A stretch of DNA of 64,000 nt from Macrostomum lignano (Eukaryota). A program made the position numbers and the translations under genes. Positions 6,346 to 64,000 of the stretch are shown here, piece after piece. Every line of letters begins with the position of its first letter. The stretch's first letter is position 1. The notes under the pieces were generated by a model, which worked only from the letters and a program-made list of their open reading frames with translations, did no database searches and had not been told where the DNA came from. The stretch covers positions 1 through 64,000 of the forward strand of contig NIVC01000538.1 of NCBI GenBank assembly GCA_002269645.1. Direction: 5' to 3'.

Positions 6346-10758
<4,413 letters not shown>

Positions 10759-27902: not shown

Positions 27903-29474
27903 ATGATGTCGCAGCCATGGTACGCTCAGTATCCCATGCCGCCCGGCTGGGAGATGAAGTACGATTTCACTAATAAGCGCTACTTCTACATTGACCACAC
28001 CAACAAGGTTACTAGTTGGGACGACCCGCGCCAGAAATACTACGCTGCCGGCGCGGCCTCTTCTTCTGGCGCCGCCGGTTCATCGACATCTGGAGCCCGA
28101 TTGTCGCCTCGACCGGTGTCGCCAAGGCCGGTGCAGCAGCAGCAACAGCAGCAACAGCAGCTGCTGTACCAACAGCAACAGCAGCAGCAGCGTCAGATGC
28201 AGCAACAACAGCATCAGCAGCAGCACAGACAGCAGCAGCGCAGTCGTCGCGAAAGCAGCAGCAGCGAAGATCGGAACAGTTTCACCGCCGAAGTGACCAG
28301 CGATGATTATGAGATTACTAGGCTGCAGCTCAGATTTCCCAATGAGGACGTGGCCAAACTGCGCCAGGCCTTGGCCGCCTGTCACAGCAGCGTGGACGCC
28401 GCCACCAAGTGGCTCAACGATGCCAAGGCCGCCGAGGAGGCCAAAAAGCACGAGGCGCAACTGCTAGTTAAGGCAAAAAATATACATTTTGAGTTTCCAA
28501 CTTGCAGTCTGGACGTTATTAAGGATCTGCTAAACCAGTCGAATAGCTCTGTACCCAAAGTGAAAGCTCAGCTGGCTAGTATGGGCTACAGCTCCGGGAC
28601 TGGAGCCTCGAGCTCGCGGCCGCAGCAGCCACCAGCCGCTTCGTCATCGAATTCGAGCCACCCACCGCCGAAGGCTGCGCAGCATCACCAGCCTAAGAAG
28701 TCCATGCAGATTCAGCACGGCAACGAAGAAGAGGAACTCGCCACCAAAATTGAATGCTTGTACGAAGCTTTCCCCAGCGTGAGCAAGGCTCAAATCAAGC
28801 GCACTTTGCTGTCCTGCCAGTCGCGAATGTACGAAACTCGGCAGGAACTAAAAAATCTCGTCTCCAACTCGGCCGCGACAGGTAGCGCCGAAGTTGGCGC
28901 CGGAAGCGGCTCCAGCGCTCCTGTTGGCGATGGCGCCCACGCCTCCAAAGCCTCGGCTGCTGCTTCCGCCGCCGTCGTGGCTAAAGATGCCGAGGAACGC
29001 CAGCGGAATTCTCGCCAATCCGCCGAGGCGAAGGCGGAGACCCGCCGAGAGACTTTGGTGGACCAGATGATGGCTGAGTTCCCCGGCGTTGCCAGCGTCA
29101 GCGGCGTCACTGAGCTGCTTCAACGGTACTCCGACGATGCCGACAAAGTGCGTGCCGCTCTTGCCGCCGAGGCCGCCACCCCGGCTGTCTCAGCCTCTGC
29201 TGCACCGGCGGCCTCCGCTGCTGAAGCTTCCACCAGCTCGTCTGCTTCAGCAGCTGCTTCTAAAAAGAACAAGAGGACATCAAAGCAGACGGCTAAGCCG
29301 GGAACGGTCACGGCTGTAGCCGGCAGCTGCAGCAGCAACCGGGCTGGCCCGGACCCGGCCATGCGCCAGGGCCCCGACCCGGAGCTGCTCAGCGGCCCGG
29401 ACCCGCAACTGCGACTAGGACCCGCTGCCAGTCTGGCTAGGGGACCTGACCCCACCCTGCTGCTGGCGCACTAA
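27903..29474 (+). CDS. WW-domain protein with polyQ, four CUE-like repeats and GPDP repeats, single exon
   Basis: PPGWEMKYD...FYIDHTNKVTSWDDPR WW; four L/M..EFP......I/L..LL-type repeats; C-terminal GPDP x4; 523-aa open frame. Confidence 0.8.
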   Translation: MMSQPWYAQYPMPPGWEMKYDFTNKRYFYIDHTNKVTSWDDPRQKYYAAGAASSSGAAGSSTSGARLSPRPVSPRPVQQQQQQQQQLLYQQQQQQQRQMQQQQHQQQHRQQQRSRRESSSSEDRNSFTAEVTSDDYEITRLQLRFPNEDVAKLRQALAACHSSVDAATKWLNDAKAAEEAKKHEAQLLVKAKNIHFEFPTCSLDVIKDLLNQSNSSVPKVKAQLASMGYSSGTGASSSRPQQPPAASSSNSSHPPPKAAQHHQPKKSMQIQHGNEEEELATKIECLYEAFPSVSKAQIKRTLLSCQSRMYETRQELKNLVSNSAATGSAEVGAGSGSSAPVGDGAHASKASAAASAAVVAKDAEERQRNSRQSAEAKAETRRETLVDQMMAEFPGVASVSGVTELLQRYSDDADKVRAALAAEAATPAVSASAAPAASAAEASTSSSASAAASKKNKRTSKQTAKPGTVTAVAGSCSSNRAGPDPAMRQGPDPELLSGPDPQLRLGPAASLARGPDPTLLLAH

Positions 29475-31946: not shown

Positions 31947-32264
31947 ATGGTGAACGTCCCCAAGACCAGGCGTACTTTCTGCAAGTTCACCTGCAAGAAG
32001 CACACCCTGCACAAGGTGACGCAGTACAAATCCGGCAAGGCGTCTCTATACGCGCAAGGCAAACGGCGCTACGATCGAAAGCAGAGCGGCTACGGAGGCC
32101 AGACTAAGCCCATCTTCCGAAAGAAGGCCAAGACCACCAAGAAGATCGTGCTGCGCATGGAGTGCTCCGAGTGCAAGCACAGGAAGCAGCTGGCCATCAA
32201 GCGGTGCAAGCACTTCGAGCTTGGCGGCGACAAGAAAAAGAAGGGCCAGATGATCCAGTTTTAG
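31947..32264 (+). CDS. RPL36A: 60S ribosomal protein eL42 (L36a/L44), intronless, 105 aa
   Basis: [12 protein letters not shown]...[37 protein letters not shown]...[13 protein letters not shown]; AATAAA at ~32338. Confidence 0.97.
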
Positions 32265-37769: not shown

Positions 37770-39566
37770 AAAATTGGGTCTAGCTGATAAGCCAAAAGAG
37801 TACTCCGCAAACGCTCAATCTTTAATCAAATGCTTCAAGTGCGCCCCCATGCTTGAGTCAATTTATTTTTTCTTAAAAATGGAAAGGAAAATACCAGCGG
37901 CCTCTTATGAATTTGATTTCGACTCCGTTAAAGAAATTCGCGGTCTAATCTCCACAATTCTTTGCAAAAATTTGATGGCTAGAGATTCAATAAAATACAG
38001 ATTTTTGTTTGTTGCAGAATTTTATAAAGGAATCAAAGTATCGAACTTTGTTAAATCTGCTTCAAGTTGAAGCTAGTATTGAAAGTACAATCAGGGATGT
38101 TCTAGATGAACTTGATGAATGGAAGGATAGTTTTAATGAAAGAAGGATCGGGTTACTATTTTACGAAATTAGCAAAGATAGTGATGACGAAGTGACAAAT
38201 TAAAAAGCGGCAAAACATTGTTTTCTCTGCTCAAGGCCATTTGTAGATAGCAAAAAAATTCGAGAGCATAATCACTACAATAGTAAATACTCGTATCGTG
38301 GCGCAGCATGTCAATCATTTAATACCAAGGAGGGCAAGGCGAATCAAACCGTACCGTTGTTTCTCCTGAATGAACCTGGAAAAGACCCTAACTATTTGAT
38401 AGTTCCATTAACACGAATAAGGAATACAACATATAAATTGGATTTCATTTCTAAAACATCGGAAGACCATGTTGCAATTAAGTGGGGGAATTATACAAGT
38501 AGCGTTGTGTTTTTAGATGGATCTAGGTTTTTGGAACCATCATTTACACTCTCTGAAGAAGAAATAAAATATTTGCCCCCCCCCCCAGTGATACTGGTAC
38601 AACAGCAGTAATTAGAAAGGTTTACTCATTTGTCAATGCTTTTGAGAAGTTTAAGTCAACATTCTTGAGTTATTTCAAGATAGATCCTGCGTATTGCTTT
38701 TCCCTTTCTGGATTATCGTGGGCATGTAGGTTAAAATATACTAATGTGAAATTGGAATTACTCGGTGATAAAGAAATGATATCTATGATAGAAAGTGGCA
38801 TTCGTGGCGGTTTCTCTGGAATTCTTGGAGATCGATATAAAAAATGAATGACAAGTTTTAGAAAATTATGACAGCAATTCAGAATCGTCGTACATGCTAT
38901 ACCTAGACAAGAATAATTTATATGGTGAAGCACTGATGAAAAATCTTACTGTTGGAGATTTCAAGTTTGAAGATGATCTAGACTATCACAAGAATATTCC
39001 TGATGGCAGCGGTTGTTTTCTTGAAGTTGACCTTGAATATACAGAGGAGTGTAAGAAAGCTACAAGTAAATATCCACTTGCTCCTGAGAAACGAACTAGA
39101 TTTGAGGATTTATCTGACATACAGAAGCAATACCTTGAAGTCGAAAAGAAAAAGTTTGTTCAATCCAAGTTAATATTGACACTTTAAAATAAGGAGAAAT
39201 ATGTCTTACATCATACTACTTGAGTTTTATGAGAATAAGGGCATGCGAGTTACGAGAGTGCATGCAATTATTTTATTCAAAGAGTCAAATTGGTTGAGTA
39301 AATACATCGAATTTAATACTAGGCGGACAATGGAAGCAAAAACTAAATTTGAGAAATACTTGTAGAAGCAACTAAACAATTCATTCAGCGGTAAAGCAAT
39401 CGAAAATGTAAAGAATAGATCAAACTTTCACCTTGTAACTGAAGCAGAGGTTTCAAGGCGTCATTTCTCAAAACCAAATTTCAAAAATGTCATTGTGTTT
39501 AGTGAGGATGCAGTTTGTATCAAAATGTACAAAAGATAATTGCGTGACAAGCCAGTGTATCTCCCG
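37770..39566 (+). pseudogene. Protein-primed DNA polymerase B copy B, 5' part
   Basis: EndoVII-like YRGAAC, exonuclease-like FLDGSRF, IESGIRGG, YLDKNNLYG, FLEVDLEY, YPLAPE, QLNNSFSGKAIEN; stops at KPVYL. Confidence 0.85.
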
Positions 39567-39779: not shown

Positions 39780-40815
39780 CTTTTGATTTGACGAATGATA
39801 GTAAATCCTAATTCTAGGATAATTACTCGAAACTAATAACGACACTGTTGGCCTCACCGTTGACATCAATCCGCATCTTCTTTTTAGTAGGAATATCCGC
39901 ATCTCGCTGCACCCTAGTTTCAGCCACTGACTCCGTCGTAACCTGCGAACAGATAAAGACCAGCTTTCCTTCGCCGCTGAGAATGGCACTCTGCATGTGG
40001 TGTCTGGCACTTTATACTGTTGGATATACTGCTCAAGCGCCTTAGTTGAGCTATACCCAGTAATTCCAGCTTGCAACTTGCTTGCATCGACTGCATGAAA
40101 ATGCCTTGACCACCTTGGGCGTCCGTTGAACCCTTTCAGTCCGCCTTGGTTGGTCTTGCTTTTTTTGCCTCCGTGTACACTAGACACTCGTCAACTCCTT
40201 AGCCATCCAGTGTTATTTCCCGTCCGAATTCAAGGTCGCGAAGCTCCGCCCCTCCACGAAGCCCAAAGTGTTTTCCGACAAGCCAGGCAACAGTGCGAAC
40301 TAATTGATCAGGGCGGTCAGCACCCAATGCGCCATTTACCCAGCAGTCAATCTCAATAGACGCAGGAATGGGCAGGGAAGCCTTTAGGCCTTTGCTCTTG
40401 CCATCAGCTGTTGATAATTTCATTGCTGAGTCTAAAGCCTTCCTGCTTTCGATGAACTCGACATCAGTCCATAAGCACCATTGTTGGCCGGACACGTTTC
40501 GCATGTGATATTGGAGCATTGAAAAAAGTCCTTTAGTTTGCCGGCCGAATATCTTTAATTCCGTTTTGTTCTCACCTCTAGAATAAACATCTTCAACAAG
40601 TAGTTAAAATCGTTCTTCGTGAATTCCTCCATCTCTTTCAATACCATTGATAATAGTCCGCCTGATGTAGCCCACTGGTTCTTCTTGAACTGATGCCATT
40701 CACGAAATGTAGCGATCATCCACTCACACTTTCTTATTGTGTTTGGCGGAAAAGTACTTTGAATCAAGGCGACTACTTCAACGTCCGTCAGACTTTCAAA
40801 CTGTTCGCTAGTCAT
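39780..40815 (-). pseudogene. Crypton-like (DUF3504/ZMYM-type) tyrosine recombinase, fragment 1
   Basis: NTIRKCEW..F..W, FILEVR, SRKALDSAMK, GALGADRPDQLVRTV..HFGLRGGAELRDL, SKTNQGGLK, AGITGYSSTKALEQY. Confidence 0.75.
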
Positions 40816-40945
40816 GTCGTGAAAATCTATATATTTATAATTATTCGCTTGCTCACTTGCAAAAATTTTATTTTCTTAGTCATTATATAAAATCCGATTA
40901 CTTATTTTATTGACATTTATTGGGCTCATTCTGAGCCAGGAAAGC

Positions 40946-41066
40946 CTAGTCTATGGTTTAAAGTGCTATAATTCCAGGCACATCAAATAATTTGATGGGC
41001 TCCAAAATGGAGACCATCAAATGATTTGATGGTCCCTAAATGAAAGCAGTTTGAACCATAGACTAA
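40946..41066. repeat. Palindromic mini-element with tagtctatggtt / aaccatagacta ends
   Basis: 16-bp inverted ends with 1 mismatch; two internal catcaaat.atttgatg palindromes. Confidence 0.75.
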
Positions 41067-41176
41067 ACAGAACTAGACAGTGTACTTGGATGCAACAAAA
41101 AAAACTTTTATTATATACTGTATAACGAAGCAACAAAAAAACAATTTTCCAGCCAAGCCATGGACAATTGGTAGGG

Positions 41177-41776
41177 TTATATAGGAAACATATTTAGTTT
41201 TTTCAATAATAGGCAATGCATTAAACGTTTCACCAACTCACTTAAACTGAATTTCGATTTTAGCTCCATCAATGATGATAGACTTGACACCGTGGTCAGT
41301 AATAGAAGCGCTGGAATCTCCAGAAGCGACAGGCTCACGTAAAAGTGTTGGATCATCGATAACAAGTTTTTCAGAGTTCCCGGCGGATATTTTTCGCCAT
41401 TCCCCTTCCTCACCTCAAAAACGAAGAAGTGCAACAGTTCGTTGATCTCATTCTTTGTAAGCTCTTCGACAGGCTTAATCACCGCGAGTCCTGACAGACG
41501 GCCTTGCATTTGCAGTTGGACACGATTCTCCTTCCACGTCTGGAACACATTCATCGCCCACTTTTCTCTTGCTAGTGTAGACTCAGGTGAGCTCTCTAGC
41601 ATTCTGCGCTCCAAAGCGGTCTCATCAAGCAACTCACCGAAACGAGAGCTAGGTTTGGTCGGCAGTGTTTTAGCGTTTCCGAGGGACGGCGGAACTACAT
41701 TTCCAGCAGGGGCTGGATCGAAAAAATTAAAAAAGTTGTCGCTATCAAATTCTTCTTCCATCGCGGTGTGGTTCAA
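41177..41776 (-). pseudogene. Crypton-like tyrosine recombinase, fragment 2 (N-terminal half only)
   Basis: STLAREKWAMNVFQTW...EINELLHFFVFEVRKGNGEKYPPGTLKNL. Confidence 0.75.
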
Positions 41777-41980
41777 GAGAAAGCTACGAAAGAAAGTAAT
41801 TCGGATTTCGTCTAGCTAGTACTGTCTTAAATTTATGGAAAAGTTGTCTATGGTTCCAATGTGGGGGCTTCGCCCCCACACCCCAATCGGGTCTTTGCCG
41901 ACTGGCTGCACCGCATTCGGCCCGGCTCAAGAGAAAGCTACAAAAATAAGCAATTCGGATTTCATATAAGATCACGGTAG

Positions 41981-42101
41981 TTTAATGCGCATTCTATGGT
42001 AGAAAGTCCTCGGCCACACTTAATGGTCCTCGGCTCGCTTCGCTCGCCTCGAGACCATCAAATGCAGCCTCGGACTTTCTAACCCTAGAATGCGCATTAA
42101 A
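41981..42101. repeat. Palindromic mini-element with central ctcgcttcgctcg
   Basis: tttaatgcgcattctatggtagaaagtcc inverted at ggactttctaaccctagaatgcgcattaaa. Confidence 0.75.
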
Positions 42102-42309
42102 CATCCATGATTATATACGTGATTTCAGCCTGTACCTTGTTTAAATGCTTAGCCATAGACTACAGCTTTGACTTGATTTAAGTTTAACAAATATTGAAGT
42201 ACTTTTTTAATTATCCTTTTACGTTCTTTAGCCATATAGTGAGAGATACATACCATACTCCCCATTTATTGTGTTGTCTAGGGTCAAAGGCTCGAGGTGT
42301 CTCGTTTGT

Positions 42310-42880
42310 TGACCGACGCGAAACCATTTATTTAGGAATGGCCATTCTGGATTATGCAAAAATACTCATTTACGATTGCTATTACAATGTTATTAAGAAG
42401 AATTGGAACAGCTGTCATCAATTGCACTATTCTGATTGTGATTCGCTGATATTCTCAGTGATTACTCAGGATTTTTATGAGGATCTGGAAAAAAATTAAA
42501 GAACACTTAGACATCTGATTATCCAACAGAGCATCCACTATACTCCGAGAAGAATAAGAAAGTCATTGGAAAGATGAAAGATGAAAGGAATGGCTCAATA
42601 ATTTCCGAAGCTGTATTTCTACGGTCAAAGGAGTATGCATTTACTACAGTTTCAGGTGAGCGTGTTAAGATTAAGGGTGTTGATAAAAGCAGCTGTAACA
42701 AATTTTAAAACGTTAAAAGGTATACTATTGACAGATTACAAAGAGATTCAAAGAAGTAAAGTATGACTATTTCAGAAAAAAAATATACACTCGCGATATC
42801 ATAAAACAAACAACGAGTCCGTTAGATGATAAAATATCTTATTCGGATGCTATAAGATCTATTCATCATCAGCCAATACA
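42310..42880 (+). pseudogene. Protein-primed DNA polymerase B copy B, 3' part
   Basis: IYLGMAILDYAK, LHYSDCDSLIF, NKKVIGKMKDE, LRSKEY: the motifs that follow KPVY in pPolB. Confidence 0.85.
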
Positions 42881-42926
42881 ATCTCATTGATACTCGTAAC
42901 ATCTTCGTTTATTTTTTCACACAGTA

Positions 42927-44261
42927 CGAGGGGTGCGCAAAAAGTTATGGCAACTGGGTTCCCAATTGCAGATGAATTGCTAGTAAATCTTAAAACTTTA
43001 TTAAAGTCCTTCAATGTAATCTCCGCCACGTTCTATGCATTTCTGGTGACGGCGGATCCATGCCTCGAAGGCAGCGCGGTACTCTGAAGCTGGCATGGTG
43101 TTCAGCTATGAATTGATGCGGCGAGCCAAGTCTTGGGGCCGCTGAGAATGGCATCCAGCCATGCGTTCGGTCAGCTTCGGGAAGGCCCAGAAGTCGCAGG
43201 GTGCCAAGTTAGGACTGTATGGAGGGTGCGGTATCACCTTGAGCTTGTTATCGGCCAAAAAGCTCGTCATGGCCGCAGTGTGGCTGAAGGCGTTGCCGTG
43301 GTGCAAGTGAATTCTGCCACTTTGAAGGCGGGTTGGCTGCTTTTCCATGACTGAAGCCACGACTTTCGACAAAACCTCGCCAGTATAGAATTTTGCATTG
43401 ACGTTCTGTCCATTTAGCACCATAACAACTGTCTCTGGCCCATTGATGTTGAAAAAGACGACGAACATCTGCTTCCGTGAGCGAAACCCAGGGCGAAGAA
43501 CAGTTGGACGGTCTTCATCAGAACCAATCCAAACCTTGTTTTGGTTCTTGTGAGGCACTTGGAAGTAGTAAAACCACTTCTTATCACCAGTCACGACATT
43601 AGTAAATCGTTTAGTGCCACCTTCGCCGAAGCATCGCAGAAATTCTTGGCTGCATCGAACCCTCTCCTGCTTCTGCTCTGCTGTGAGTGCATGAGGTACC
43701 CAACGGGCCGTGACCTTGCGGAGGCCAAGATGGTCATGCAGGATGGTTCGGACACTGCCATCAGAAATGCCGATTGTCTGGCTAAGTAGTGCAACGGTGA
43801 TATTGCGATCTTCGTCCACCAGCTGTCGCACAGCTACAATGTTCTGCTCGGTCACGGATGTCATTGGCCTCCCAGAACGAGGGCTGTCGGTCATGGATCG
43901 TCGACCAGCACTGACCAATTCAATCTAACGGGCGACGGTGCGGTACGAAGGGGCCTGATCTGCTACAACGTGGACTAGCTCTGCATGAATTTTGGTTGCG
44001 TTTTCACCGAGCTGCGATCGCATGAAAACATAAAATCTCCACTGATCAGCACTAATATTCTATTTCCCGTTTGAAGGCTGAAAACTAGACTGTACGTTAA
44101 TCAAAATGCTCTTGGAAGCGAAAAAATCAGTGCAATGACCTGAAAATTTATGAACAAACGCAAAATATACTCTTATTTATGAGATTAAAGAATGGTTACA
44201 TTTAAACGTTTATTTAAAAAAAGTTATCAGTCAGTTTTCAAGACTTTTTGCGCACCCCTCG
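42927..44261 (-). mobile_element. Mariner element, 1335 bp, catalytically dead transposase
   Basis: Perfect 19-bp TIR cgaggggtgcgcaaaaagt, TA on both sides; WVPHAL and YSPNLAPCDF; GDE changed to GDK, HDNA to HGNA, in-frame stop. Confidence 0.95.
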
Positions 44262-44343
44262 TAGAACAGAACATTTCTAGTTTCCTGCTGTTTGTTCTTT
44301 ATCCTTCGTCTATATCTTTTCTTATAGTAATTACAAAAACCAT

Positions 44344-45365
44344 TGTAATTCTTAAAGAAATCAGTTACGTTTTGTTGTCGGAATTCACGTTTTTCGCGTT
44401 GGGGTAGATTCCTCTTGGGGCAGTGTGAATTTCGCTAATAGGCACAAATGAAGAGTTTAAGAGTGGTGATCAGTCACTCAAAAACTCCCACTTCTAGACA
44501 CTGGGGAACAAGTGCCTAGGTATTTACCAGTTCAAACAACTTACTGCAACGGATCCTCTTGGGGTCGGCAGCCGGTGGAGTTCTGTGGCGCGTCGGGATA
44601 GCAAGCTTGCTGAGCGGTTACGGCGACCGGTTCCGGTGAACAACTGTTTTTCTTTGGTGTCCTTAACTTTATCTGTGGGTCGACCAGAACGAGAGCGAAT
44701 CAGAATTCTTGACGGTCCTCGAGCTCGGAATTCACAATAGAACGTGCGCCCTAATGAACAATTGAATTCTCTAATTTTCTGTGATAGGTCCTCCTGAAGG
44801 GCGGCTTCTTCGTTACGTCCGAAACGTAACGGATAACTCAATTAAATCAATAAATCCTCTAGGAATATCCTAGGAAACAAGGAGGCCTTTCTCGAATGTA
44901 TCGACAATGAACTGCTCTCGTATACTCAATTAACCAACTTATTAGCGCTAGTAACAAATAACTAAATCGGGTAAACGCTTACCAATTGGACAGGTGTGGT
45001 CCCTCAGAGATTGGTCTTCTTATTTCTTCAGAGTCTTCTTAGAGACCGCACCGAGTCTGAATTTTTGACTCGATTTTGACTTATATTTATAGAAAAATTT
45101 TGGAGAAAAACCGGTTTGGGATTGGGTATTTACTTAGGTCAAAAATGTTTGATTAAGCGGTCATGCATGTTTGAGCATTACCATATATGGAGTTAAACAA
45201 ATACAGCTGTTGAAATCCGGTTCCTTGATCAAACAATGTAGGGTTCTAAATCATTCTGTATGCGCGTGGTTCCTAAAATAGATATTACTCATTTTGAAAG
45301 AAATTGACTTCCTTAGAATATTACTTTAAGTAGAGCATTACGGTATGGTCTAATAACTCTCTACA
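44344..45365 (-). mobile_element. Putative 3' LTR (~1 kb) of a Gypsy-type element
   Basis: Minus strand PPT GAAAAGGGGAGA (45380-45369), TAT, then TGTAG at 45365; candidate far end TTACA at 44344. No second LTR copy in window, so the far boundary is a guess. Confidence 0.55.
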
Positions 45366-45596
45366 ATATCTCCCCTTTTCACGAAAAATTCGTCCCGAAT
45401 TTTAAAGTTAAAACGGTGAAGTGGGGTTTTATACTTCTAATAAACATGAAAATGTATTTAAGGATTAGAAATGTTGAACAAGTAGTAATATAGTAGATGG
45501 ATAGGTAGATAGGTAGGTATTAGTAGTTTTTGTGATGAAAGATTTTTTTAGGAAGCATATTGTTAATTTGTTGCTTGGCAGGATGCATTGTTATTG

Positions 45597-46196
45597 TTAA
45601 TAGGAAAGCATATCATTCAGTATATCGTTTACTTTGGTTGTCAATCTCGCGAGTGGCCACAGTAAGTGCTGTATCGGCGTAAATTGTGTTGATTCGGTGG
45701 CGTTGAGGAATTCCAGGTAGATCTCTTCAGTTGTACTCGTAGTATTTATTGGATGCGCCGCATATTGACGTACCAAGTCAAAAAGATATTCCAAATTGTC
45801 TCTCTTGTTGAATGGTATTGGCCAGGTTCTTATAGCTGTTGCTAGTTCCTTGGCCGTCATACTGTCCATGATCTCCTTTGTAAGTTAGATCTTTGGTAAT
45901 GTTGTTGTTCCGGCGTAAATTTCCTTGGATATTGGCGCTGCACAAGTTATGCAATGCTTATAGTCGCGGCACCGAATTTTTAGGGCACAATCTCGGCAGA
46001 CCCAGTGCCCGTAAGCGCACATCCGTTGTTGCGGTGTTGTATTACATACCTGGCACAGGGTAGGTTGTGCGCGGCATAGCGGGCATTTGTCTATTCTATC
46101 CGTTGTGCAGCAGTTATAGCAGAACTTATGCCCATGCTGACAGTAGACATACTGTTCAGCGTCTTCATAACAAACAATGCACTCGTCGCAATCCAT
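45597..46196 (-). CDS. Cargo unit 2: RING-RING plus WPIP domain, one in-frame TAA at 45885-45887
   Basis: CIVC-x9-CQHGH-x2-CYNC-x8-CPLC and CQVC-x8-CAYGH-x2-CRDC-x11-CITC; the downstream ORF 45597-45869 is in the same frame. Confidence 0.7.
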
Positions 46197-46269
46197 GTCT
46201 GAAAAATGGTCAATGTGATAAGTAATATCTGTGCAAGAATGGTTGCAATATCTGTGGGTGCATGGTATT

Positions 46270-46918
46270 TTAATCAATTTCTGAAGCGGAACTATTATAG
46301 TCATATGATTCTTGGGGTGGTAATATATAAGACAAGTCCTCATTACGCAGAATGAGTGCAGGTAGAGTTGTACAGAGGATGGGGCATGGGTGAAAATTCA
46401 TATCGTTAACAATTTTAAACAGCTTATGTTCAATTTCTTGTGGAGATAATTGCCGGAGTCTAGAACCGTAGGAAGAGGAATAGCGAACGAGGTATTTACG
46501 TGTTTTATGAGCAACACGTGGTATGGGCCATGATCTGAGGCGGATAATTATAGCATGTGATGGAAAAAGAGCATAAGTGAATGGGTGAAGCTGTAGGTTA
46601 TAGTCTGCTTGAATGCATGCAAGTTTGTTGTTAACTTTAGGTAAAGGGTCGGCTTCGCATATAGGACACTGACAAATGGAGCGATAAGCAAGCTTCTTAA
46701 TACATTGTGTGCACATAAAATGTTGATTTAAGCAATATTGTTCAGTGCGCCAGGAGTTGCATATCATGCATTGACGGAGATTACCTCGACACATAGGGCA
46801 ATTTTTAAAGGTTTTTGTAATGTGCAAGGCTTAAGCAAGAACCACACACCTGGTGTCTATTGACACATATACAAGGTAGTTTACATGAAAATTCTCCGAG
46901 ACAGATAGGACAATCCAT
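46270..46918 (-). CDS. Cargo unit 1: RING-RING plus WPIP domain, one frameshift near 46810
   Basis: MDCPIC...CVNRHQVCGSC...CPMC and CMIC-x8-CLNQH-x2-CTQC-x11-CPIC; tail RLRSWPIP. Confidence 0.7.
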
Positions 46919-47049
46919 TGTCGTGTTTGTCGAAGTTGTGTGAGTGTTTGTAGGAAAACAAGGATTTAGTCGCCTCTTACGACAAGCTTGAGGAAGCTGT
47001 AGTGCTATTCTTTATCCCGGTCACTACACGGGGACATGAATCGAATAAT

Positions 47050-48387
47050 TTAACGAGGTCTTAGGTTGTACGTATGACCGACAGGTGGTGCGTTTGTTGT
47101 TTGTGTTTCGGCGTGTGCAGTGGCAATGTGTTTATTTGTTGTTTTTGTGTGGTCTGGATTTTGTAGGTCTGGGAGGAATGTAGTGTCGTTAGTGATACGT
47201 TTTAGACGTTGAATGTGAACATAGAACTGAGGTTGATGTGGATCCTGGATATTAGCGAGGCGTGCCGTTGTTGCCGATACCAATGCCGTTACTCGGAATG
47301 GTCCTTTGTATTTAAGTGCGTGTTTATGCGTATGTCGCGCAGGGTAATGTAGGTAAACGATGTCTCCGACTTGTAGAGTAGATGTATGATTGCTGGTGGT
47401 GACTACTGCCTGTTGATTTTCTAAATTGTGTTTCGCGATTTGCCATGCCAGGTGTAGCTGCGAAGTAAACTTTTGTAGTGTTGTTGGCGTTTCCACGTAC
47501 TGAGAAGGTAATAGTTTTTGAACTAGTAGGCTTGGTGGCGGAAAGTCTCGAGAGAACATAAGGAAAAACGGTGTGTTCTCTGTTGAACGGTGTACTGCAC
47601 TGTTGTAGGCCATTGTCACTGACTGCAGGTATATGATCCAATCTTCAGGTTGTTTATAGACGAAGTGTGTCAACATTTCGTGTAGATTTCTATGGAATCG
47701 TTCTACTAGGTTAGCTTTTGGATTGTAGGTGGAGGTGAAAATTTGTTGGATATTTAGTAGTTTAGCAGCCTGTTGGAATAGTTGCGACGTAAATTGTGTA
47801 CCATTGTCGGAGGTTAGTGTCTTTGGAGTTCCGTATTTACAGATAATCTCATTGTAGAAGGCCATAGCAACTGTAGTGGCTGTAATGTCAGGCAGTGGAA
47901 TGGCAACAGCAAATTTAGAGAACACGTCTAATGCGGTAAGAATGTAAGTGTAATCGATAGCATGTTGTCGAGCTGACGGTAGTGGTCCGGTAATATCAAG
48001 TGATACAATGTCCCATGTGGTTGTCTTTGGTACGGATTGAAGTTCTGGTTTTTGTCTTCTTCCAGTCTTTGTTGAAGCACATGAGTGGCATTGTAGGCAG
48101 CACTTGCGGATGTCTGCATTCATTGTTGGCCAGAAATAGAACTGGGCTATTCCGTGGATTGTTTTCTTGGCAGATAAATGTCCGGCTAGGGGTGTGTCGT
48201 GTAGTTCATGTAGGATTGCGGCGCGATAGTTGTATGGTAGGTACAATCTTGGGGTATTATTGTGCAGCCAGTAAAGTGCTAGTTCTTTGAAGATGAGATT
48301 ATTGCCTTGTTTCCGTAAAAATTTCTTTTCGATCTTTAGTGATTTGTCGGCAAAGGAAGAATCGGTAGTCATACAGGTAGCCCTCAA
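47050..48387 (-). CDS. Gypsy-type integrase (H2C2 zinc finger, rve core, GPF motif), uninterrupted ORF
   Basis: LHD...GH...YFWP...CLQC; SLDITGP, SDNGTQF, NLVERFHR, KYKGPFRV. Confidence 0.92.
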   Translation of the reverse strand: MRATCMTTDSSFADKSLKIEKKFLRKQGNNLIFKELALYWLHNNTPRLYLPYNYRAAILHELHDTPLAGHLSAKKTIHGIAQFYFWPTMNADIRKCCLQCHSCASTKTGRRQKPELQSVPKTTTWDIVSLDITGPLPSARQHAIDYTYILTALDVFSKFAVAIPLPDITATTVAMAFYNEIICKYGTPKTLTSDNGTQFTSQLFQQAAKLLNIQQIFTSTYNPKANLVERFHRNLHEMLTHFVYKQPEDWIIYLQSVTMAYNSAVHRSTENTPFFLMFSRDFPPPSLLVQKLLPSQYVETPTTLQKFTSQLHLAWQIAKHNLENQQAVVTTSNHTSTLQVGDIVYLHYPARHTHKHALKYKGPFRVTALVSATTARLANIQDPHQPQFYVHIQRLKRITNDTTFLPDLQNPDHTKTTNKHIATAHAETQTTNAPPVGHTYNLRPR

Positions 48388-49483
48388 GCTCCTCGCATTC
48401 TTTGAGGGTCTGCTCGATCAAGTTATCTTGGGCCTTCCCTTGAAAGCCGTGTAAAAAGACGCCGTAGGGCCGGTTGGCTTCGTAAATAAGCTTGGCAGCG
48501 TTCGCCGTCAGCGAGTAGACTTTACTGCCAGTCGCCAAGCAGTGTCTTCCCGGGTTGGCCAATCGGAAGCATGGGCACAAATTTCGGGCGTCGCTCTTTA
48601 CGCCATTCAGCTCCACCCACTGGGCGAACAGGCCCGGCGGGCATTCCAGCGATGGCGGCTGTTCAAATGTGAGGCGGACTTTACGGAGCCCTGGCCCTTT
48701 CTTTACTATAGCCACTTTTGAGTCTTGTTTGCGCGGCTTATACTTTCTTGGGCGGGCTGCGCGGTCTTCAGCAGGCAGTTCTTCTTCTTCTTCCCTTTTG
48801 TCGCCGTGTGGCATGGGCATTCCATGTTGTGATTCGAGTCTCCTCTTCAAGTCTCTTCTGTCTGCGGTTCTTCTCGTTTTGCTTCCTTCTTGTCCTTCTT
48901 TCTTTCCGTCTTTCATTTCTCCTCTTCTTCCATTCACTTGTCTTTTTTTTTTGGTTTGCGCTCGTTTTTATTCGTTTTTGTTTGTTTTTTAGGTGCTTCC
49001 TGTGCTCTCGGTCCCGGATTCTTTTCAATAGTTCTTAGTCTTATTCTTATTATTTCTGCAAGGTGTCTCTTCTTCTTCTTGATGTTGGTCCTGCTTGTTC
49101 TCTTTCTCTTCTCATCCCCGTCTCGACTGTGGTTGGCCTGGTGTTGTGCGGCAGCTAGGTCGGCCATGGCTACCTGCCGTTGCTGAAAAGGGCCGGTTGC
49201 ACAGTTCCGACTTGCGTCGTGGGCTGGGCTCCGTGCCGGATTCCCTCTGTGTCTTCTTTGCCAGGATGCGTGACCGCATCCTGTCCGCTTGCCACCTCGG
49301 GAAGGTGAGACACAATCGGTAAGCTTCGTCGTCTTCGTCCTCATACTCCTCAGTGTCTTCACGGTCGGCCTGCTCTTGGAGGCGATCGGCCCTGGTAGGC
49401 CTGTAGAGCTCGTCGTCCTTCTCCGACATTGAATCAGTTTCCGCGTCTAGGTCGACCTTCGGCCGCGAGGCTTGACCGATCGG
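48299..49483 (-). CDS. Exon 2 of a spliced, charged/basic ORF of unknown function abutting the integrase
   Basis: Acceptor ttttatatcttgcag| at 49484; three partial frames link via indels at homopolymers (~49187, A10 at 48943-48952, T5 near 48320); contains TIEKNPGP. Confidence 0.5.
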
Positions 49484-49619
49484 CTGCAAGATATAAAAGG
49501 GTTCATTTTGTAAATTTAATACGCACAAAGTCTGGAAAATTTTTAGATAGCAAAACATGTAGCAATCAACTGGGAGTTGTAATAGGCCTATTATATTAAT
49601 AAATATATATTGTCACTTT

Positions 49620-49950
49620 ACTACGTATTGCAATTTTCATACCTCAAAAACGTACTTAAAGTAGAGGGTAACAAAATCCGAACGTAGCAAATTGTTAAAT
49701 TTTAGTACGTACTAAAAATTTCATACGTAAATGACGTACGCAAAATAGAGGGTATCTAAATCCGAACATAGCAAATTATTGAATTTTAGTATGTACTAAA
49801 AATTTCATATGTAAATGACGTACGCAAAATAAAGGGTAGCTAAATCCGAACGTAGCAAATTATTGAATTTTAGTACGTACTAAAAATTTCATACGTAAAT
49901 GACCTACGCAAAATAAAGGGTAGCTAAATCCGAACGTAGCAAAATATTGA
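49620..49950. repeat. 84-bp tandem repeat, ~4 copies (intronic)
   Basis: aaatccgaac recurs with tccg at 49677, 49761, 49845, 49929. Confidence 0.9.
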
Positions 49951-50049
49951 TTAATACAGCGGCCCTCCTAATCCCCTACCCTGGTGCTGTTGAATCCACG
50001 GAAACGCGTGGCATTGGAAACGATTAAAATCAATTATTCATAAATGGAA

Positions 50050-50630
50050 TTTTCATATTTGCACTCCTACATTTTAGCCACTGCAGAAAAGTGCCTAAAG
50101 GGCTATATTGTCATATAATATGACAAACTTAAAACCAATTGTAATTTCAATAGTCTTAGTGTGTATGGAAAATAAATTTTCATACACTCTCTTCATATTA
50201 ATACTTAATTGGCAAGTTTGCTAGAGCTTAACCTATTGTATGTTATATATAAGCATCTTTGCACTCCTAACTGTTAGCCATTGCAGACAGTTGGTTAAAG
50301 GGCTATATTGTCATATAATATGACAATGACAAACTTCAAACCAATTGTAATTTCAATAGTCATACTCATAGTGTGTATGAAAAAATTATTTTCATACACA
50401 GTAACCCATATATAAAACTGAGTGCCAGGTTTCTTACAGGTGAACCTGTTTTATATAGCATAAATATATAAATCTATAGATATATCTTTGCTGTCCTAAC
50501 TTTTAGCCACTGCAGAAAAGTGCCTAAAGGGCTATATTGTTATACAATATCACAAACTTGACACAATTGTAATTCTAATAGTTTTGTTCCATACAGTCTT
50601 AGTGTGTATGGAAAATAAAATTTCCTATGC
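50050..50630. repeat. Three diverged ~200-230-bp direct repeats (intronic)
   Basis: aaagggctatattgt...caattgtaat...gtgtgtatg recurs three times. Confidence 0.7.
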
Positions 50631-50924
50631 TGACAGTCCTTAATAAAAATATTCACAAAATTGTGAGACATGTAGCAAATTTGTCAACAGAGTACGGGCA
50701 CCAGCGAACAGCGCACATCAAAAGCGAAAAATAATGCAACTACGATTTAAACGCGAAATATTTCAACAAACAATGTCTATAATTTTAGCACCAAGTAAAA
50801 AATGGACACAAAACAATAAGGGCATCAAAAAATTAAAACTTTATAATATGCTCCAACATTTGTTACTTTTAAACCCATAATTTAGGTAACGACGGAATTC
50901 CTCTACGTTTATTATTACTTTTCA

Positions 50925-51190
50925 GTACGTATTAAAACTTTCATACGTAAATGACCTACGCAAAATAGAAGGTAGCTAAATCCGAACGTAGCAAATTATT
51001 GAATTTTAGTACGTACTAAAAATTTCATACGTAAATGACGTACGCAAAATAGAGGGTAGCTAAATCCGAACGTAGCAAATTATTGAATTTTAGTACGTAC
51101 TAACAAATTCATACGTAAATGACGTACGCAAAATAGAGGCTAGCTAAATCCGAACGTGGCAAATTATTCAATTTTAGTACGTACTAAAAA
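50925..51190. repeat. 84-bp tandem repeat, second array, ~3 copies
   Basis: Same unit; tccg at 50981, 51065, 51149. Confidence 0.9.
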
Positions 51191-51303
51191 ATAAAGGATA
51201 TTGAATTTTGGTACACTATAATTTACATACGTTGCAGACGTGTGGAAATTTCAATACGTAGTTAAATTTATTATCTTGCAAAATTCGAGTTTCAGTCTCT
51301 TAC

Positions 51304-51438
51304 ATCGATAGCACTCTTAGAAGGCACGGCCGGTGTCTCCGCAGTACGACCTCCCGGGGAAGACGGCGCACCAGAATCGGAAGCGGCGGCGCCCGTAGCA
51401 GCCGTCTTGCCGCGCCTTCTAGTAGCCCTCGTATTCAT
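51304..51438 (-). CDS. Exon 1 (45 aa) of the spliced ORF
   Basis: GC-rich MNTRATRRRGKTAATG...SKSAID ending GAT|GTAAGA, phase 0, in frame with exon 2. Confidence 0.55.
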
Positions 51439-51770
51439 TGAGCCTGCTGCTGCTTCTGCTAATATATCTCCTAACTAATTAACGTAATTTCAAAACCTTT
51501 CGGAATTACCTACACTGTTAACATAGCAAAATCAATAGGTATCAAAATTCTTGCTCTCGGTGTATAGCAAATTCTAAGACGTAGTTCAACATTTAAATAC
51601 ACTCTGGAACGTACTAAAATCTCTCAGCCAATGAAATTCATTCTAGCAAATTCTTACTTTAGCGCGTATAAAAGGAGCTCCCCGCCTCAAGTGACGACTT
51701 TTTACCTTCTTGCAGTCCCACTAGCAACATTAAGATTTGCGAAATATTCCCTCGGGCATATTTCCCAAAC

Positions 51771-52505
51771 ATGATGCGAATCGCAGAAGCATTGACTACA
51801 TTTGGCCACAAAGGCTTCAAATCTAAAGAACAAGAAAAAATCCTATTGTCAGCCGTCTGCACGGACTTCGACATCCTCGCCATCATGCCGACGGGTGGTG
51901 GGAAAAGTTTGTGTTATCAGCTACCGGCCGTTCTTGCTAACGGTGTAACAATTGTCTTCTCGCCGTTGGTCAGCCTAATGGAAGACCAACTGCGAAATCT
52001 TCCCGCTGAAGTGGAAGCATGCTCCCTCTCGGCCGGACAGAGCGACTTTGAAAAGGCCTGGAGGTGCAGCCTCGTGTACTGCACACCCGAGAAGGCTCAA
52101 CTGTCCAACGAAGTTGCCGATTTCCTTGTAAGGTTGTTCCGAGCCGGACGGCTGAAACGCATTGTCATCGACGAGGCCCATTGCGTTAAGGCATGGGGCG
52201 AAACGTTTCGACCCGCCTATCTAGCCCTCGGTGAACTTCGGCAGCGTTTCCCAACGGTTCCTTGCATGGCCCTGACGGCTACCCTTACGCCAGTTGGTGA
52301 GGATTACATCCAGAAAAAACTCCACCTGCAGACCGACCTGCTAGTGTTCAGGACGAGCGCTGCGCGCCCCAACATCAAGATCCGAGTGGAGCAGACGGAC
52401 TCCATTGTGATGTCTCTGCTCGGGCAGTTGCAACGTTGGGAGTTCGCGACAGCGAGCTGCATTGTCTACTGCGGGACTACAACTGCAGCCGAGAGGACCT
52501 GCAAT
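51771..52505 (+). CDS. RecQ-family helicase, first exon (helicase domain 1); remainder not found
   Basis: MPTGGGKSLCYQLPA, SPLVSLMEDQ, YCTPEK, VIDEAHCV..WG..FRPAY, ALTAT, SCIVYC; donor AAT|gtgagt. Confidence 0.9.
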
Positions 52506-52569
52506 GTGAGTTTAACAGTTCCATTACAAACTTCTCAGTAGAACAGAGAAGCCCAATTTTTGTACTGTT

Positions 52570-53267
52570 CAGAAATTGCTACACACTATGAGTAGTCAAT
52601 TCCAGAGAGTAGTAAAAAACATTTGACTACACTTTAGAATTTGCTACACACTGTGAGTAGTCAATTCGTGTGTATTAAATTCTATTTTTGTTTGCGATCC
52701 CAATCGGAAGCTGAAAACCTCTCCATTGGAATCTACGTACTCAATTTAGTGACTGTGTGGTGTCGTCAAGAAAAATAAATCTCCACGCGATCGGCACAAA
52801 ATGCAATCGGCGATAGTGACAAAGTGACTACGATTTCCAAACTCTAACTTAAAATTTTGTCAGTTCGACAAAGTCCAAAAAACTTTTCTAGGAGTTTAAG
52901 GCGTCTTTCGACTGGAAATAATTCCCGTATTCGCAAAATCGATATTTCAGCACCCAACTACGTTCTCCCTCCTAGTAGGACCGAAAAGTCCAACTTTACT
53001 ACGTTTCAGAAATTGCTACACACTATGAGTAGTCAATTACAGAGAGTACTAAAAACGTTTGACTACACTTTAGAATTTGCTACACACTGTGAGTAGTCAA
53101 TTCATGTGTATTAAATTCTATTTTTGTTTGCGATCCAAATCGCAAGCTGAAAACCTCTCCATTGCAATCTACGTACTCAATTTAGTGATTGTGGTGTCGT
53201 CAAGAAAAATAAATCTCCACGCGATCGGCACAAAATGCAATCGGCGATAGTGACAAAGTGACTACGA
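52570..53267. repeat. ~265-bp direct repeat, two copies (52570-52834, 53007-53267)
   Basis: Near-identical cagaaattgctacacactatgag...gtgacaaagtgactacga. Confidence 0.9.
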
Positions 53268-53469
53268 AAGGGGAACGAAACAGAGACAGCCCACAGCAGA
53301 GAGGCTGAGGGCTGAGAACAGAGGCGCAGGAAACGAGCAGAACAGGAAAAGGGGGCAACAAACGGACAGACAAGGGAGGCGGGAAGCTGACCAGCGGCAG
53401 ACAGAAACCCAGGGCGAGGACGAGGGCGAGGGAACTGCTGACAAAAGGGGGATGCCTAACATTTAACTA

Positions 53470-54552
53470 GCGGCTCACTACATAAATGATATTGTTCTTA
53501 TATGCATAAACAAGTTGGTTATGTTGACGTCAGTGAAATTATCATCAAGATACTCAATCCTACCATAGTTATCATATTTGCTTTTCCATTCCTTATATTT
53601 ACCATAGTTTTCTTTACTGCCCGTTTCTTTAGTATACCTATTGTAAGTATATTCTCCTGTGCATCAGCAGAGCTGGCACTGGTGCTATTCCACACCTTTT
53701 TACATTACTCGGAATCAAACACATCATAATTTGCTTTTGACCACTCAGTGAATAGTTTGTACATTTCATTGCTACTGTCTATGTTGCGGAGTATGAGTGC
53801 TACCTTGTACCTCGATTGATAATCTTGGGTTTTTGTGCTGCATTATACTTTGAAATATTTGAAAAAACAACTTTGAAATTCCGTCACAGTTGGGGGGTGG
53901 AACGGTGCTTTTTAGTCCCTGTTTATCGGATTCTTGGTTTTCTTTTTTATCCTGTGGCTTAATTAATCTATTTATCTCATCAAGAATTTCATCTGGCATG
54001 TCTATTAACCCTTGGGCTTTATATGTTTGTATTCCTTAATTTCACCATCGACAAAATAGAAACCTGGTGGAGCAAATACCAAAGCTGGTTAATCAAAACC
54101 CACGCTTTTTTGAAGTGTTACTTTCAGTCCATCTACCTTCTTAAAGTAAAAGTGTTGCCTCTTGTTTGTCTCTACAATCCAATCACAATGATTCATGCAT
54201 AATTTATTCAACTCAGGGCATAGGTCAGCTTTATCAATATCGATGACAGAAATATTAGAGTTTTTCGTATCTATCCAAATCATGTCTTCATCTGGTCGAA
54301 GTGGTGGGGAGGTTGAATTCCTTTGTGCTTTGGTTGGCATTCCTGACGGTATTTTTTCTTCGTCTTACTATTCCATGTTATACTGCAATTTCCGAATCTA
54401 AAATTAAGTTTTCCATAGAGGTTAGTTAGTGTATTATACAACTTTGTTTTTTCTAAATTTCTCAACCTTGGTGGTGGTGTATAATGGTTTTGACGCGGAT
54501 CCTGTACGATCGCAGAAGAGACACTTGAATCGTTTTGATTTTTTCCTTCCAT
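53470..54552 (-). pseudogene. Viral-type AEP primase (Prim-Pol + PriCT-2), truncated
   Basis: SNISVIDID (DxD), WIVETNKRQHFYFK (His), VFAPP, then DYQSRYKVALIL...KLFTEWSK...KVWNS; stops and frameshifts; helicase part absent. Confidence 0.65.
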
Positions 54553-61363: not shown

Positions 61364-62668
61364 CGAGGGGCACTAGATAAGTTTTTAGCTGCGGTCAAAC
61401 CGTTTATTCAAATTAGGCCATATTTTCTGAGCATATTGAATTAGAAGTTTTATCATGGTCCCCAAAGTTTCATGCACCTAATTGTCACCATTCTCTCACT
61501 GTCGCATTTTATCTCAACAAGGTTTGTGACTCTTTCAGCACTGTAATGGAGCTAAATCGTGAACACTTTCGTGCCATGATTTTCTACGATTTTAAGAGCG
61601 GCTTGACATTTCACCAGTGCCACGAGCGGCTGTCTGCTGCCTTTCCTAACCTTGCGCCATCCATCGCCACCGTCACCGCCTGGTTCCGGGAGTTCAAGCG
61701 TGGCCGAGACAGCTTGGAAGACGAAGGTCGAACCGGCCGACCTGTTTCAGTGACGACACCTGAAACTATCGACCGCGTGCGGCGCATGATTGAGGCTGAT
61801 CGGCGAGTGACGTATCAAACGATTGAGGCATGTCTTGGAATCTCATCGCCGACAGTCGCTTCTATCCTTCGTGATCACCTCGCTGTCCGCAAGCTGACCA
61901 GTCGCTGGGTGCCGCATTTGCTCACCACCGAGCAGAAGCAGGCCCGCATGAGCTGGTGCCAGGAAATGCTGGACAGGTTTGGCGGAGGGACGTCGAAGTC
62001 TGTCACAGACATTGTCACATGTGACGAAACGTGGGTGTATTGCTACGAACCCGAGCGGAAATGCCAGTCGCGTGTGTGGGCTTTTGAAGATGAAGCCCCG
62101 CCGACCAAGGTTGTCAGGGGTCGGAGCACTGGCAAGCAAATGGTGGCAACTTTCTTCCGAAAGACTGGCCACATTGCGACTGTAGCACTCGAGAGCCAGC
62201 GCACAGTGACTGCAGATTGGTACTGCACCGTCTGCCTGCCACGTGTCATCAGCAGCCTTAAAGAGGCGCGGCCAAAGTGCGGCGTTCGAGGTCTCTGGCT
62301 GCACCAGGACAACGCCAGTGCGCACACGGCGAATCGAACTCGAGAGTTTCTACAGACGGTGGGCTTCCAGCAGCTCAGTCATCCACCATATTCACCTGAC
62401 CTGGCACCGTGTGACTTTTTTTATTTCCATTCATCAAGAATTCCATGCGAGGGTGCCGATTTTCCTCCGCCGAAGAGGCTGTTGATGCCTATAGATCGGC
62501 CGTTGAGGGGGTATCCCACTCAGAGTGGCGCCACTGCTTTGAAACTTGGTTTGAGCGGATGAGGCGGTGCATCCAAGCTGATGGAGAGTACTTTGAAAAG
62601 CTCTGAAAGTTTCATCTTTATAACTGTTACATGTCGACCGCAGCTAGAAACTTATCTAGTGCCCCTCG
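61364..62668 (+). mobile_element. Mariner element, 1305 bp, near-intact DD34D transposase (61546-62606)
   Basis: 33-bp TIR with 1 mismatch, TA TSD; WVPHLL, CDETW, HQDNA, YSPDLAPCDF; single frameshift in a T7 run restores FLFP...GEYFEKL*. Confidence 0.96.
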
Positions 62669-63096: not shown

Positions 63097-64000
63097 TCAC
63101 TTGTAGACAAGCCGATCCGGTGGTCGACTAACCCGTGCGCTCCGACGGAGTTCCTGGGCGCCGGATGGCAACGGTCCTAACTGGATCTGACTGGTGGGAT
63201 TTGGTGGTGTAGTGACGGTCTCACTGAGGGCTGGATTGACGTCCGTAGATTTTGAATCCGAGGGCTTCGAATCAGCCACCGGAAGCTGGTCCGTACGAGC
63301 TTGAATGTCTGACCGATGAACGAGTCTGTTCGGTGCCTCCCTAAATGTATTAGAACCAACGGCAGACTTCAGCTTAGTAGGGAAACGCTCCTCCTTGTGC
63401 TCCACTCGAATGAACACGGGAGTTGGCTGCTGACTTGGCCTCGACCACTCAGTGCAAGCGGCGGACAAACGTGTCCTTGGCAACTGCTGAAAGATCAGTA
63501 GAGCTGGTATTGATCCGTTGCAATGAGGTGTAGTGTTCTGGAAGAGACAAAATCCCGCAATGTGCCGATCTAAGGCAGAGAAGTCCGCGTTGGCTTTCAT
63601 CTTACGCAGATAAAACTTCAGTTCTTCTATGACCCTCTCGACCTGGCCATTGGACTGATGGTGTCCTGGAGGTGTGCAGACGTGTTCGACACAATTGTCT
63701 TTCAGAAACATGGAGAACTCCTCAGCAACGAACGATCCACCGTTATCCATGACTATAGACTTCGGTAATCCAGTGTACTTGAATGTTTGTCTGCTTGCGG
63801 CAACAATTGATGAAGCTGTCAGTGAGTTCACATGTTAGACGTCGACCCATTTTGAAAAGGCGTCGACCATCACCAGAAGTCTGCGACCTTTAAATGTTGC
63901 AATATCAACGTGAACTCTTTCAAAGAAATTCTGCGCTTCCGACCACGAGGACAAGTTAGCATTGACTCTCTTTCTGGCGTGAAGCTGACATTGTACACAT
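63097..64000 (-). mobile_element. Gypsy (Mag/K02A2.6-like) integrase 3' part, running off the window
   Basis: ERVHVD, MVDAFSKW, VMDNG, HQSNGQVER, NTTPH, LRRSAR..RPPDRL; one stop; weak PPT/TG near 63052. Confidence 0.88.

Follow-up and report, generated by a model that had tools for sequence, protein, structure and literature searches.

The stretch analyzed here comprises positions 1 to 64,000 of contig NIVC01000538.1 from the flatworm Macrostomum lignano (assembly GCA_002269645.1; 64 kb, hereafter the window). It holds the integrase end of a Ty3/Gypsy-type retrotransposon, followed by two small open reading frames (ORFs; unit 1 and unit 2, U1 and U2, together the cargo), a polypurine tract, and a candidate 3' long terminal repeat (LTR). 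All of these features are co-oriented on the minus strand (Table 1), with spacers of 131 nt from the integrase stop to the U1 ATG, 73 nt from U1 to U2, and 216 nt from the U2 stop to the purine tract. Both units encode two consecutive zinc fingers of the RING type (RING-a and RING-b) followed by a C-terminal helical domain with a WP motif (WP domain). Each is broken once, U1 by a frameshift in an A/T run inside its first finger (about 46815-46820) and U2 by an in-frame TAA (45887-45885) between its second finger and the helical domain, and the units were compared as translations with X at these breaks.

Four C-x2-C-x8/12-C-x3-H-x2-C-x2-C-x8/11-C-x2-C patterns are present, three in uninterrupted frames and the fourth (U1 RING-a) spanning the frameshift. 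A C3HC4 regular expression run over the whole window matched in the cargo region only (seven overlapping matches), and none of 2000 dinucleotide shuffles of 45365-46918 produced a match. U1 and U2 align with 22% identity over 198 columns (E = 8e-11). Their C-terminal domains match each other only weakly (E = 0.01), yet each, taken without the fingers, has a clear match to an outside relative (E = 5e-10 and 1e-15). At the DNA level, the units share no similarity, and substitutions are saturated. An earlier inspection of the letters (the sequence-only reading) had described two paralogous units starting MDC, each with two C3HC4 patterns, a common C-terminal domain, and one lesion, all of which the analysis bears out. 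It was also right about the co-orientation and nearly so about the distance to the purine tract (~220 nt); its integrase gap of 132 nt is corrected to 131 nt.

To place the cargo among known proteins, a profile built from unaltered pieces of the window was run against 1.84 billion representative proteins. Six matches were returned, five of them with the tandem-RING layout (P0050-P0054, E = 5e-39 to 5e-8). Three are single-unit relatives (P0051, 208 aa; P0052, 206 aa; P0053, 214 aa), P0054 (130 aa) consists of the fingers alone, and P0050 (660 aa) has two full finger pairs and three WP motifs, its units being joined by a thrice-repeated acidic linker. The sixth match, P0055 (E = 3e-5), has RanBP-type zinc fingers and was dropped from the family. 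Across the resulting eight units, all 16 ligand positions match in every unit and the WP motif is found in seven. Pairwise identities in the family are 22-40%, except for 62% between the two P0050 units. Within this set of eight, U1 is nearest to P0052 (40%, E = 5e-47) and U2 to a P0050 unit (32-33%, E = 3e-32), while the identity between U1 and U2 (22-23%) is below either value. Because the units are nearer to outside relatives and share no DNA similarity, the pair is not a recent local duplication, and the two paralogues appear to have diverged before each parted from its outside relative. As judged from sequence, the cargo belongs to an old, fast-diverging family of about 200-215 aa, composed of RING-a, RING-b, and a helical WP domain. 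The intact frames of near-constant length in the relatives imply selection on the family. The double-RING plus WP combination is apparently unnamed in Pfam, and its matches in PDB and BFVD are apparently limited to the fingers. A word-indexed search with U2 gave nothing at E = 0.01 among 36 candidates, the same type of search with the family alignment returned two of 1412 candidates, both already-known relatives, and phage sequences gave no tblastn match.

The fingers are of the RING type by profile and appear so in the models. U2 passes the Pfam cut-off for zf-C3HC4_3 (28.5 bits against 27, E = 1.4e-6), and the eight ligands with C3HC4 spacing are present, the first loop of RING-b having 8 residues in seven of the eight units. 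This is one residue below the canonical minimum. The best PDB profile matches are RINGs of E3 ubiquitin ligases, namely TRIM21 (E = 4e-7), an engineered RING2-BMI1 fusion (E = 8e-5) in which the family profile aligns both fingers, SIAH1, and TRIM31. An AlphaFold model of P0052 from the 8-row alignment (pLDDT 85.7, pTM 0.73) shows two zinc-finger modules and a helical C-terminal domain, and the U2 C-terminal piece modeled alone forms five helices (pLDDT 84.4). A two-copy co-fold of P0052, in which the alignment was not used, scored 0.00. Profile and structure searches gave no family or fold match for the WP domain, and Pfam searches of the cargo found no MATH, BIR, or ankyrin domain. Nor do the models, which consist of zinc fingers and a small helical bundle, show the signal peptide, fusion peptide, and transmembrane (TM) anchor of an env-type ORF3 such as that of errantiviruses; no env family occurs among the Pfam matches of the cargo, for which no dedicated TM predictor was run.

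The two fingers differ in their ligase signature. RING-a ends in CPxCR in all eight units, its Arg falling in the alignment on R55 of TRIM21, the residue just behind the final Cys, and the hydrophobic E2-contact residues of E3 RINGs are likewise present in RING-a of all eight. RING-b carries E, A, L, L, N, G, G, or K at the linchpin position (Arg in 0/8, Lys in 1/8). The R55 linchpin stabilizes the closed E2~ubiquitin (PMC6776665; PMC12326332; here and below, papers are cited for the parts of their text that were covered). Not every E3 has a cationic linchpin, and some RING pairs consist of one active and one scaffold RING (PMC12326332). The presence of CPxCR in RING-a of 8/8 units and in RING-b of none suggests such a combination of an active and a scaffold RING. 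The sequence-only reading had counted four RING fingers; a better description is a pair of genes that each encode one catalytic-type and one degenerate-type RING. The homology check it proposed for the WP domain leads to the outside relatives and to no known family or fold.

The element itself is identified by its integrase (Pfam Integrase_H2C2, E = 4e-17; rve, E = 2e-16), whose frame is open over 422 codons and whose H2C2 domain, rve core, and GPY/F-type C terminus stand at the end of pol as in Metaviridae, the C-terminal motif being one that we take to be of the GPF type. The 5' portion of pol is absent. Among 45 matches, the closest integrase is M. lignano BOX15_Mlig000126g2 (65%, E = 7e-206). 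The two are sisters with a support of 100/99 in a tree that combines the window integrase with 33 of these 45 matches and contains no reference elements of the Gypsy clades Gmr1/Osvaldo, CsRN1, Mag, and Mdg3 of M. lignano. The second-nearest relative in the tree is P0006 (support 82/62), to which pol homology begins at 48318 in tblastn and blastx. P0006 has, ahead of its integrase, a motif that is presumably the end of an RNase H, which makes an origin from Gypsy pol more likely than one from a stand-alone integrase transposon. The M. lignano integrase relative, P0005, contains an internal duplication of 35 residues, and its annotation lists no reverse transcriptase (RT); it too may therefore be degenerate. 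A GTDB scan with the integrase confirmed none of 33 loci.

Downstream of the cargo, the tract GAAAAGGGGAGA is the sole run of at least 11 purines between 48779 and 43000, with a TG 3 nt further on. Of 5000 shuffles, 8% had any run of at least 11 purines within 400 nt, and 0.16% had a run that contained GGGG and was followed by TG, a pattern picked after the tract had been seen. The polypurine tract thus lies directly before a TG-starting candidate 3' LTR, as in Metaviridae. A mariner begins 1.1 kb past the tract and may interrupt the candidate LTR.

Codon use separates the cargo from its cellular neighbors. The integrase has a GC content at third codon positions (GC3) of 0.39, and the values for U1 and U2 are 0.32 and 0.48, against 0.71 in three pooled host genes of the window (U1, p = 2e-24; U2, p = 2e-9), and U1 does not differ clearly from the integrase (p = 0.12). 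Together with the tight spacing and the purine tract, these values favor long residence in the element, and the cargo genes are probably part of this LTR element.

Table 1. Features of the window (positions 1 to 64,000), cargo locus first
Feature	Position	Strand	Remarks
Ty3/Gypsy-type pol 3' remnant, integrase	47050..48318	-	H2C2 zinc domain, rve core, presumed GPF-type C-terminal motif; Pfam
Integrase-U1 spacer, 131 nt	46919..47049	-	short upstream ORF; YTNCAG acceptor-like motif at 47002-46997
U1	46270..46918	-	starts MDC; RING-a 46912 to about 46789, RING-b 46770-46657, helical WP domain
Splice-acceptor-like TTTTTCAG	46199..46206	-	ends 2 nt before U2 ATG
U2	45597..46196	-	starts MDC; RING-a 46181-46074, RING-b 46055-45942, WP domain 45884-45600
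Polypurine tract GAAAAGGGGAGA	45369..45380	-	putative plus-strand primer
Candidate 3' LTR	44263..45365	-	TG start at 45365; TATA-like TATAAAT at 45091; end provisional, mariner begins at 44261; LTR status from position
Mariner	42927-44261		clear inverted ends, TA flanks
Second mariner-type element	61417-62562		
DUF3504 and QRICH1-like fragments	40199-41815	-	presumably Crypton-related remnants
GC-rich apparent two-exon gene upstream of integrase	51438-51304 and 49483 to about 48350	-	GTAAGAG donor, TTGCAG acceptor, in frame; runs into truncated integrase
IEKNPGP motif	49029-49009	-	in A-rich stretch
84-bp AT-rich repeat, two arrays	49617-49950 and 50911-51190		palindromic core
RPL37a	26423-26701	+	apparently intronless
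WW/CUE-domain protein	27903-29474	+	apparently intronless
RPL36a	31947-32264	+	apparently intronless
DEAD/RecQ-like helicase fragment	51672-52541	+	intronless; Pfam DEAD, E = 3e-19
297-bp direct repeat	52537-52833 and 52974-53267		after helicase fragment
TGTC-type microsatellite array	6356-10758		4.4 kb
Endonuclease VII match	38204-38611	+	weak, E = 0.002
Fragmented RT/RNase H	15352-17674	+	probably non-LTR element
Second integrase	63097-64000	-	unrelated to cargo-linked integrase; at window edge

Possible signals for expression of the cargo lie in both spacers. TTTTTCAG contains the sole TTTTCAG in 48350-45300 (0.17 expected), and a CTACAG lies 78 nt ahead of the U1 ATG; both fit YTNCAG. In M. 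lignano, trans-splicing affects 30% of genes, YTNCAG is the top motif at spliced leader (SL) trans-splice sites, and the distance between genes of an operon is most often near 100 bp (PMC8629364). By analogy with rotifer ORF3s (PMC5408684), ordinary cis-splicing would fit cargo expression equally well.

We read the locus as the decayed 3' end of a Ty3/Gypsy element with two accessory genes in the ORF3 position that encode putative E3 ubiquitin ligases, and we give this reading as a whole a probability of about 0.5. Under this reading, each cargo protein would be a single-chain E3 ligase, in which RING-a would bind E2~ubiquitin through the CPxCR linchpin, RING-b would be its structural scaffold, comparable to the inactive member of RING1B/BMI1 or MDM2/MDM4, and the WP domain would, judging from its position, select the substrate, with the two paralogues differing in target. 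The downstream cistrons would need an RNA of their own; subgenomic RNAs made by splicing or SL trans-splicing might, on a weaker footing, supply it. The likeliest purpose would be the degradation or modification of a host factor that limits the element, such as silencing or cell-death machinery. The parts of this proposal differ in strength. E3 activity of the family is probable on its sequence features. That the cargo is regular in a Gypsy lineage is something we lean toward. Counter-defense as the purpose is plausible, and host defense as the actual target of the ligases is a tentative suggestion. The most far-reaching version we consider quite unlikely. In it, a Gypsy lineage would stably encode its own family of single-chain double-RING E3s with an unclassified substrate-binding domain, maintain the two long-diverged paralogues as an operon resolved by SL trans-splicing, and destroy host silencing or cell-death factors with them, as a retrotransposon counterpart of viral degraders of the Vif or ICP0 type.

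Several observations weigh against this reading, the first of them concerning the element. Upstream of the integrase, no RT, RNase H, protease, or gag was found by Pfam, tblastn, or blastx of 48300-51500. The Pfam scan, upstream and windowwide, covered 74 of the 124 ORFs of at least 100 aa plus four ORFs scanned separately, the remainder being ORFs in the 6.3-11.2 kb microsatellite and several overlapping antisense frames, and tblastn used 11 pol-type query proteins, one of them with RT. Self-BLAST found no second LTR for this element within the window; paired LTRs and a target-site duplication, as expected of Metaviridae, are thus lacking, and the candidate LTR is single. Since neither a second LTR nor upstream RT, RNase H, protease, or gag was found, the LTR is inferred. 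We interpret the missing RT, RNase H, and gag as a 5' truncation, so that the copy is a decayed 3' fragment of the element. The LTR-element setting of the sequence-only reading therefore keeps its integrase, orientation, and purine tract, and the codon bias fits it, but in a truncated fragment with one candidate LTR.

Two candidates for the missing parts were rejected. The RT/RNase H fragments at 15.3-17.7 kb lie on the opposite strand, 30 kb off, and are unmatched by Gypsy pol queries, and the GC-rich ORF directly upstream of the integrase, considered as gag, has a GC3 of 0.66 and no homology. The apparent two-exon gene upstream of the integrase has highly charged stretches and a differing codon bias, and it has no Pfam or Atlas match. 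The 84-bp repeat arrays lie within its inferred intron. The IEKNPGP motif in the same region is presumably a 2A-like ribosome-skip motif. No Rfam match was found in 42000-54000, nor was a tRNA gene found, and the window contains no canonical heat-shock element.

The remaining points of this kind concern the cargo. The evidence comes from a single copy of the element, in which each cargo ORF carries a lesion and the integrase is open (two lesions in 414 codons against none in 422, p = 0.24). The GC3 of U2 differs from that of the integrase (p = 0.03), and the three host genes of the window are apparently intronless as well, so the absence of introns does not mark the cargo. The family relatives are known as proteins, and two of the five come from short contigs (at most 2070 and 1167 nt). 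The family tree likewise groups U1 and U2 with outside relatives, but no branch of it is well supported. In Pfam, U1 stays below threshold (zf-RING_2, 16.9 bits, E = 0.008), as does RING-b with respect to its cut-offs. The acceptor motif was spotted post hoc, the 3-kb segment holds seven YTNCAG sites in all, and at least one YTNCAG is expected by chance with a probability of about 0.20 in the spacer before U1 and 0.11 in that before U2; given this frequency and these chances, the acceptor motifs are a lead. Finally, ligase activity neither follows from a linchpin Arg nor depends on one (PMC6776665; PMC12326332).

Some of these observations would be explained by a one-off capture or chance neighborhood, with two members of a lineage-specific RING gene family of the host or of another element decaying as passengers between the integrase and the purine tract of this one copy. 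The single copy and the two broken ORFs would be expected in that case. Fragments of elements (mariner, Crypton-like, and helicase) crowd the locus, host genes in the window are apparently intronless like the cargo, and P0050, which lacks a retroelement domain, carries its units in tandem, two complete and a third partial, joined by repeated linkers. Against these points stand a GC3 far off that of the host genes and near that of the integrase, a spacing too compact (131 and 73 nt) for separate promoters, the adjacency of two very divergent paralogues, and the lack of a named host protein among the matches of the word-limited searches; we regard capture as rather unlikely. The vehicle might also be something other than an LTR element, such as a Polinton-like element, a Ginger/GIN-type integrase transposon, or an endogenized large DNA virus, with an incidental purine tract. 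This would account for the failure to find RT and an LTR pair in the window, and the best integrase match (441 aa) is also annotated without RT. Atlas placed the second part of U1 in viral RING or hypothetical clusters (0.90; recognition 2070, below the tool's mark), and the best BFVD match is RING-only (E = 3e-3). However, the integrase has an H2C2 domain, P0006 carries the presumed RNase H end upstream, and the purine tract and TG lie where an LTR element needs them. No terminal inverted repeats surround the segment, and capsid, polymerase, and ATPase genes were not found in this truncated copy. A non-LTR vehicle is, on balance, very improbable.

A different possibility is that the cargo is regular and acts on the element's own cycle, either by ubiquitinating Gag or integrase, and so governing the assembly, release, or turnover of particles, or as a non-catalytic RING adaptor like the arenavirus matrix protein Z. 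Rapid divergence combined with a retained architecture would better fit a conflict over host targets, and the matches to Z are no better than those to many cellular RINGs. To our knowledge, most Gypsy elements replicate without such genes, and we judge a role in the element's own cycle to be improbable. The preferred reading, E3-type accessory genes of an LTR element, is the one compared below with known systems.

The closest precedent is found in planarians, where the giant Gypsy-like Burro/GYPSM1 elements carry AIR1 (described as having a RING Zn-finger), MATH, BIR, and Ubi2/SUMO domains, which are ubiquitin- and apoptosis-related and have been proposed to meddle with host systems (PMC6431247). 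In Burro, these domains mostly reside in a polyprotein of roughly 4,900 aa or in an upstream ORF (PMC6431247), whereas in the window the integrase is followed by two small separate ORFs that encode tandem C3HC4 fingers and a helical domain lacking any match. The sequence-only reading did not know the module from described Gypsy families; the layout indeed appears new, but the ubiquitin-pathway theme has this flatworm precedent (PMC6431247). The rotifer elements Juno, Vesta, and TelKA resemble the locus in having a family-specific non-env ORF3 after pol, typically expressed from spliced messages; their ORF3s, however, encode a GDSL esterase, DEDDy exonuclease, coiled-coil, TM, or env protein, and the word "ring" does not occur in the main text (PMC5408684). 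Plant LTR retrotransposons also have extra ORFs, mostly of obscure role, between pol and the 3' LTR, but many are antisense, and "ring," "zinc," and "ubiquitin" are absent from the review (PMC7264820). The word "ring" is likewise absent from PMC6338049, PMC13524379, and PMC5718144. A survey of M. lignano LTR elements does not discuss accessory ORFs in the parts covered (PMC12801592). Its supplement 5, on six HSE families, contains neither five short motifs of the window nor "RING," and the gene identifier of the M. lignano integrase relative is absent from five supplements (PMC12801592). The open-access literature thus gave no description of stand-alone or tandem RING ORFs in a Gypsy element, a search whose scope ended short of Repbase, Dfam, GyDB, and subscription papers.

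Outside retroelements, the nearest analogy is with the heterodimers RNF2(RING1B)/BMI1 and MDM2/MDM4, which also pair an active with a scaffold RING (PMC12326332). In the window units, a single chain holds both fingers, separated by only 5-6 residues, and no flanking domains are shared. Small RINGs of other parasites, namely large DNA viruses (giant viruses, mollusc herpesviruses, nimaviruses) and arenavirus Z, dominate the BFVD list. Viral RING proteins are used against hosts. The BFVD matches, in contrast to the cargo, are RING-only and weak, with none at E <= 0.001 and none combining a double RING with a WP domain.

Two groups of neighboring features may be remnants of other elements. The DUF3504 and QRICH1-like fragments are presumably Crypton-related, and the helicase fragment with the direct repeat that follows it is possibly what remains of an Academ-type transposon, a label we assume.

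Extra ORFs after pol are an established feature of LTR retrotransposons, and their jobs are mostly obscure. If the cargo is regular and active, it would offer an example, open to direct testing, of host ubiquitination reprogrammed by an animal LTR retrotransposon, and transgenic tools exist for this genus. If the proposal is true, the substrates of the ligases would reveal which host defenses matter in flatworm stem cells.
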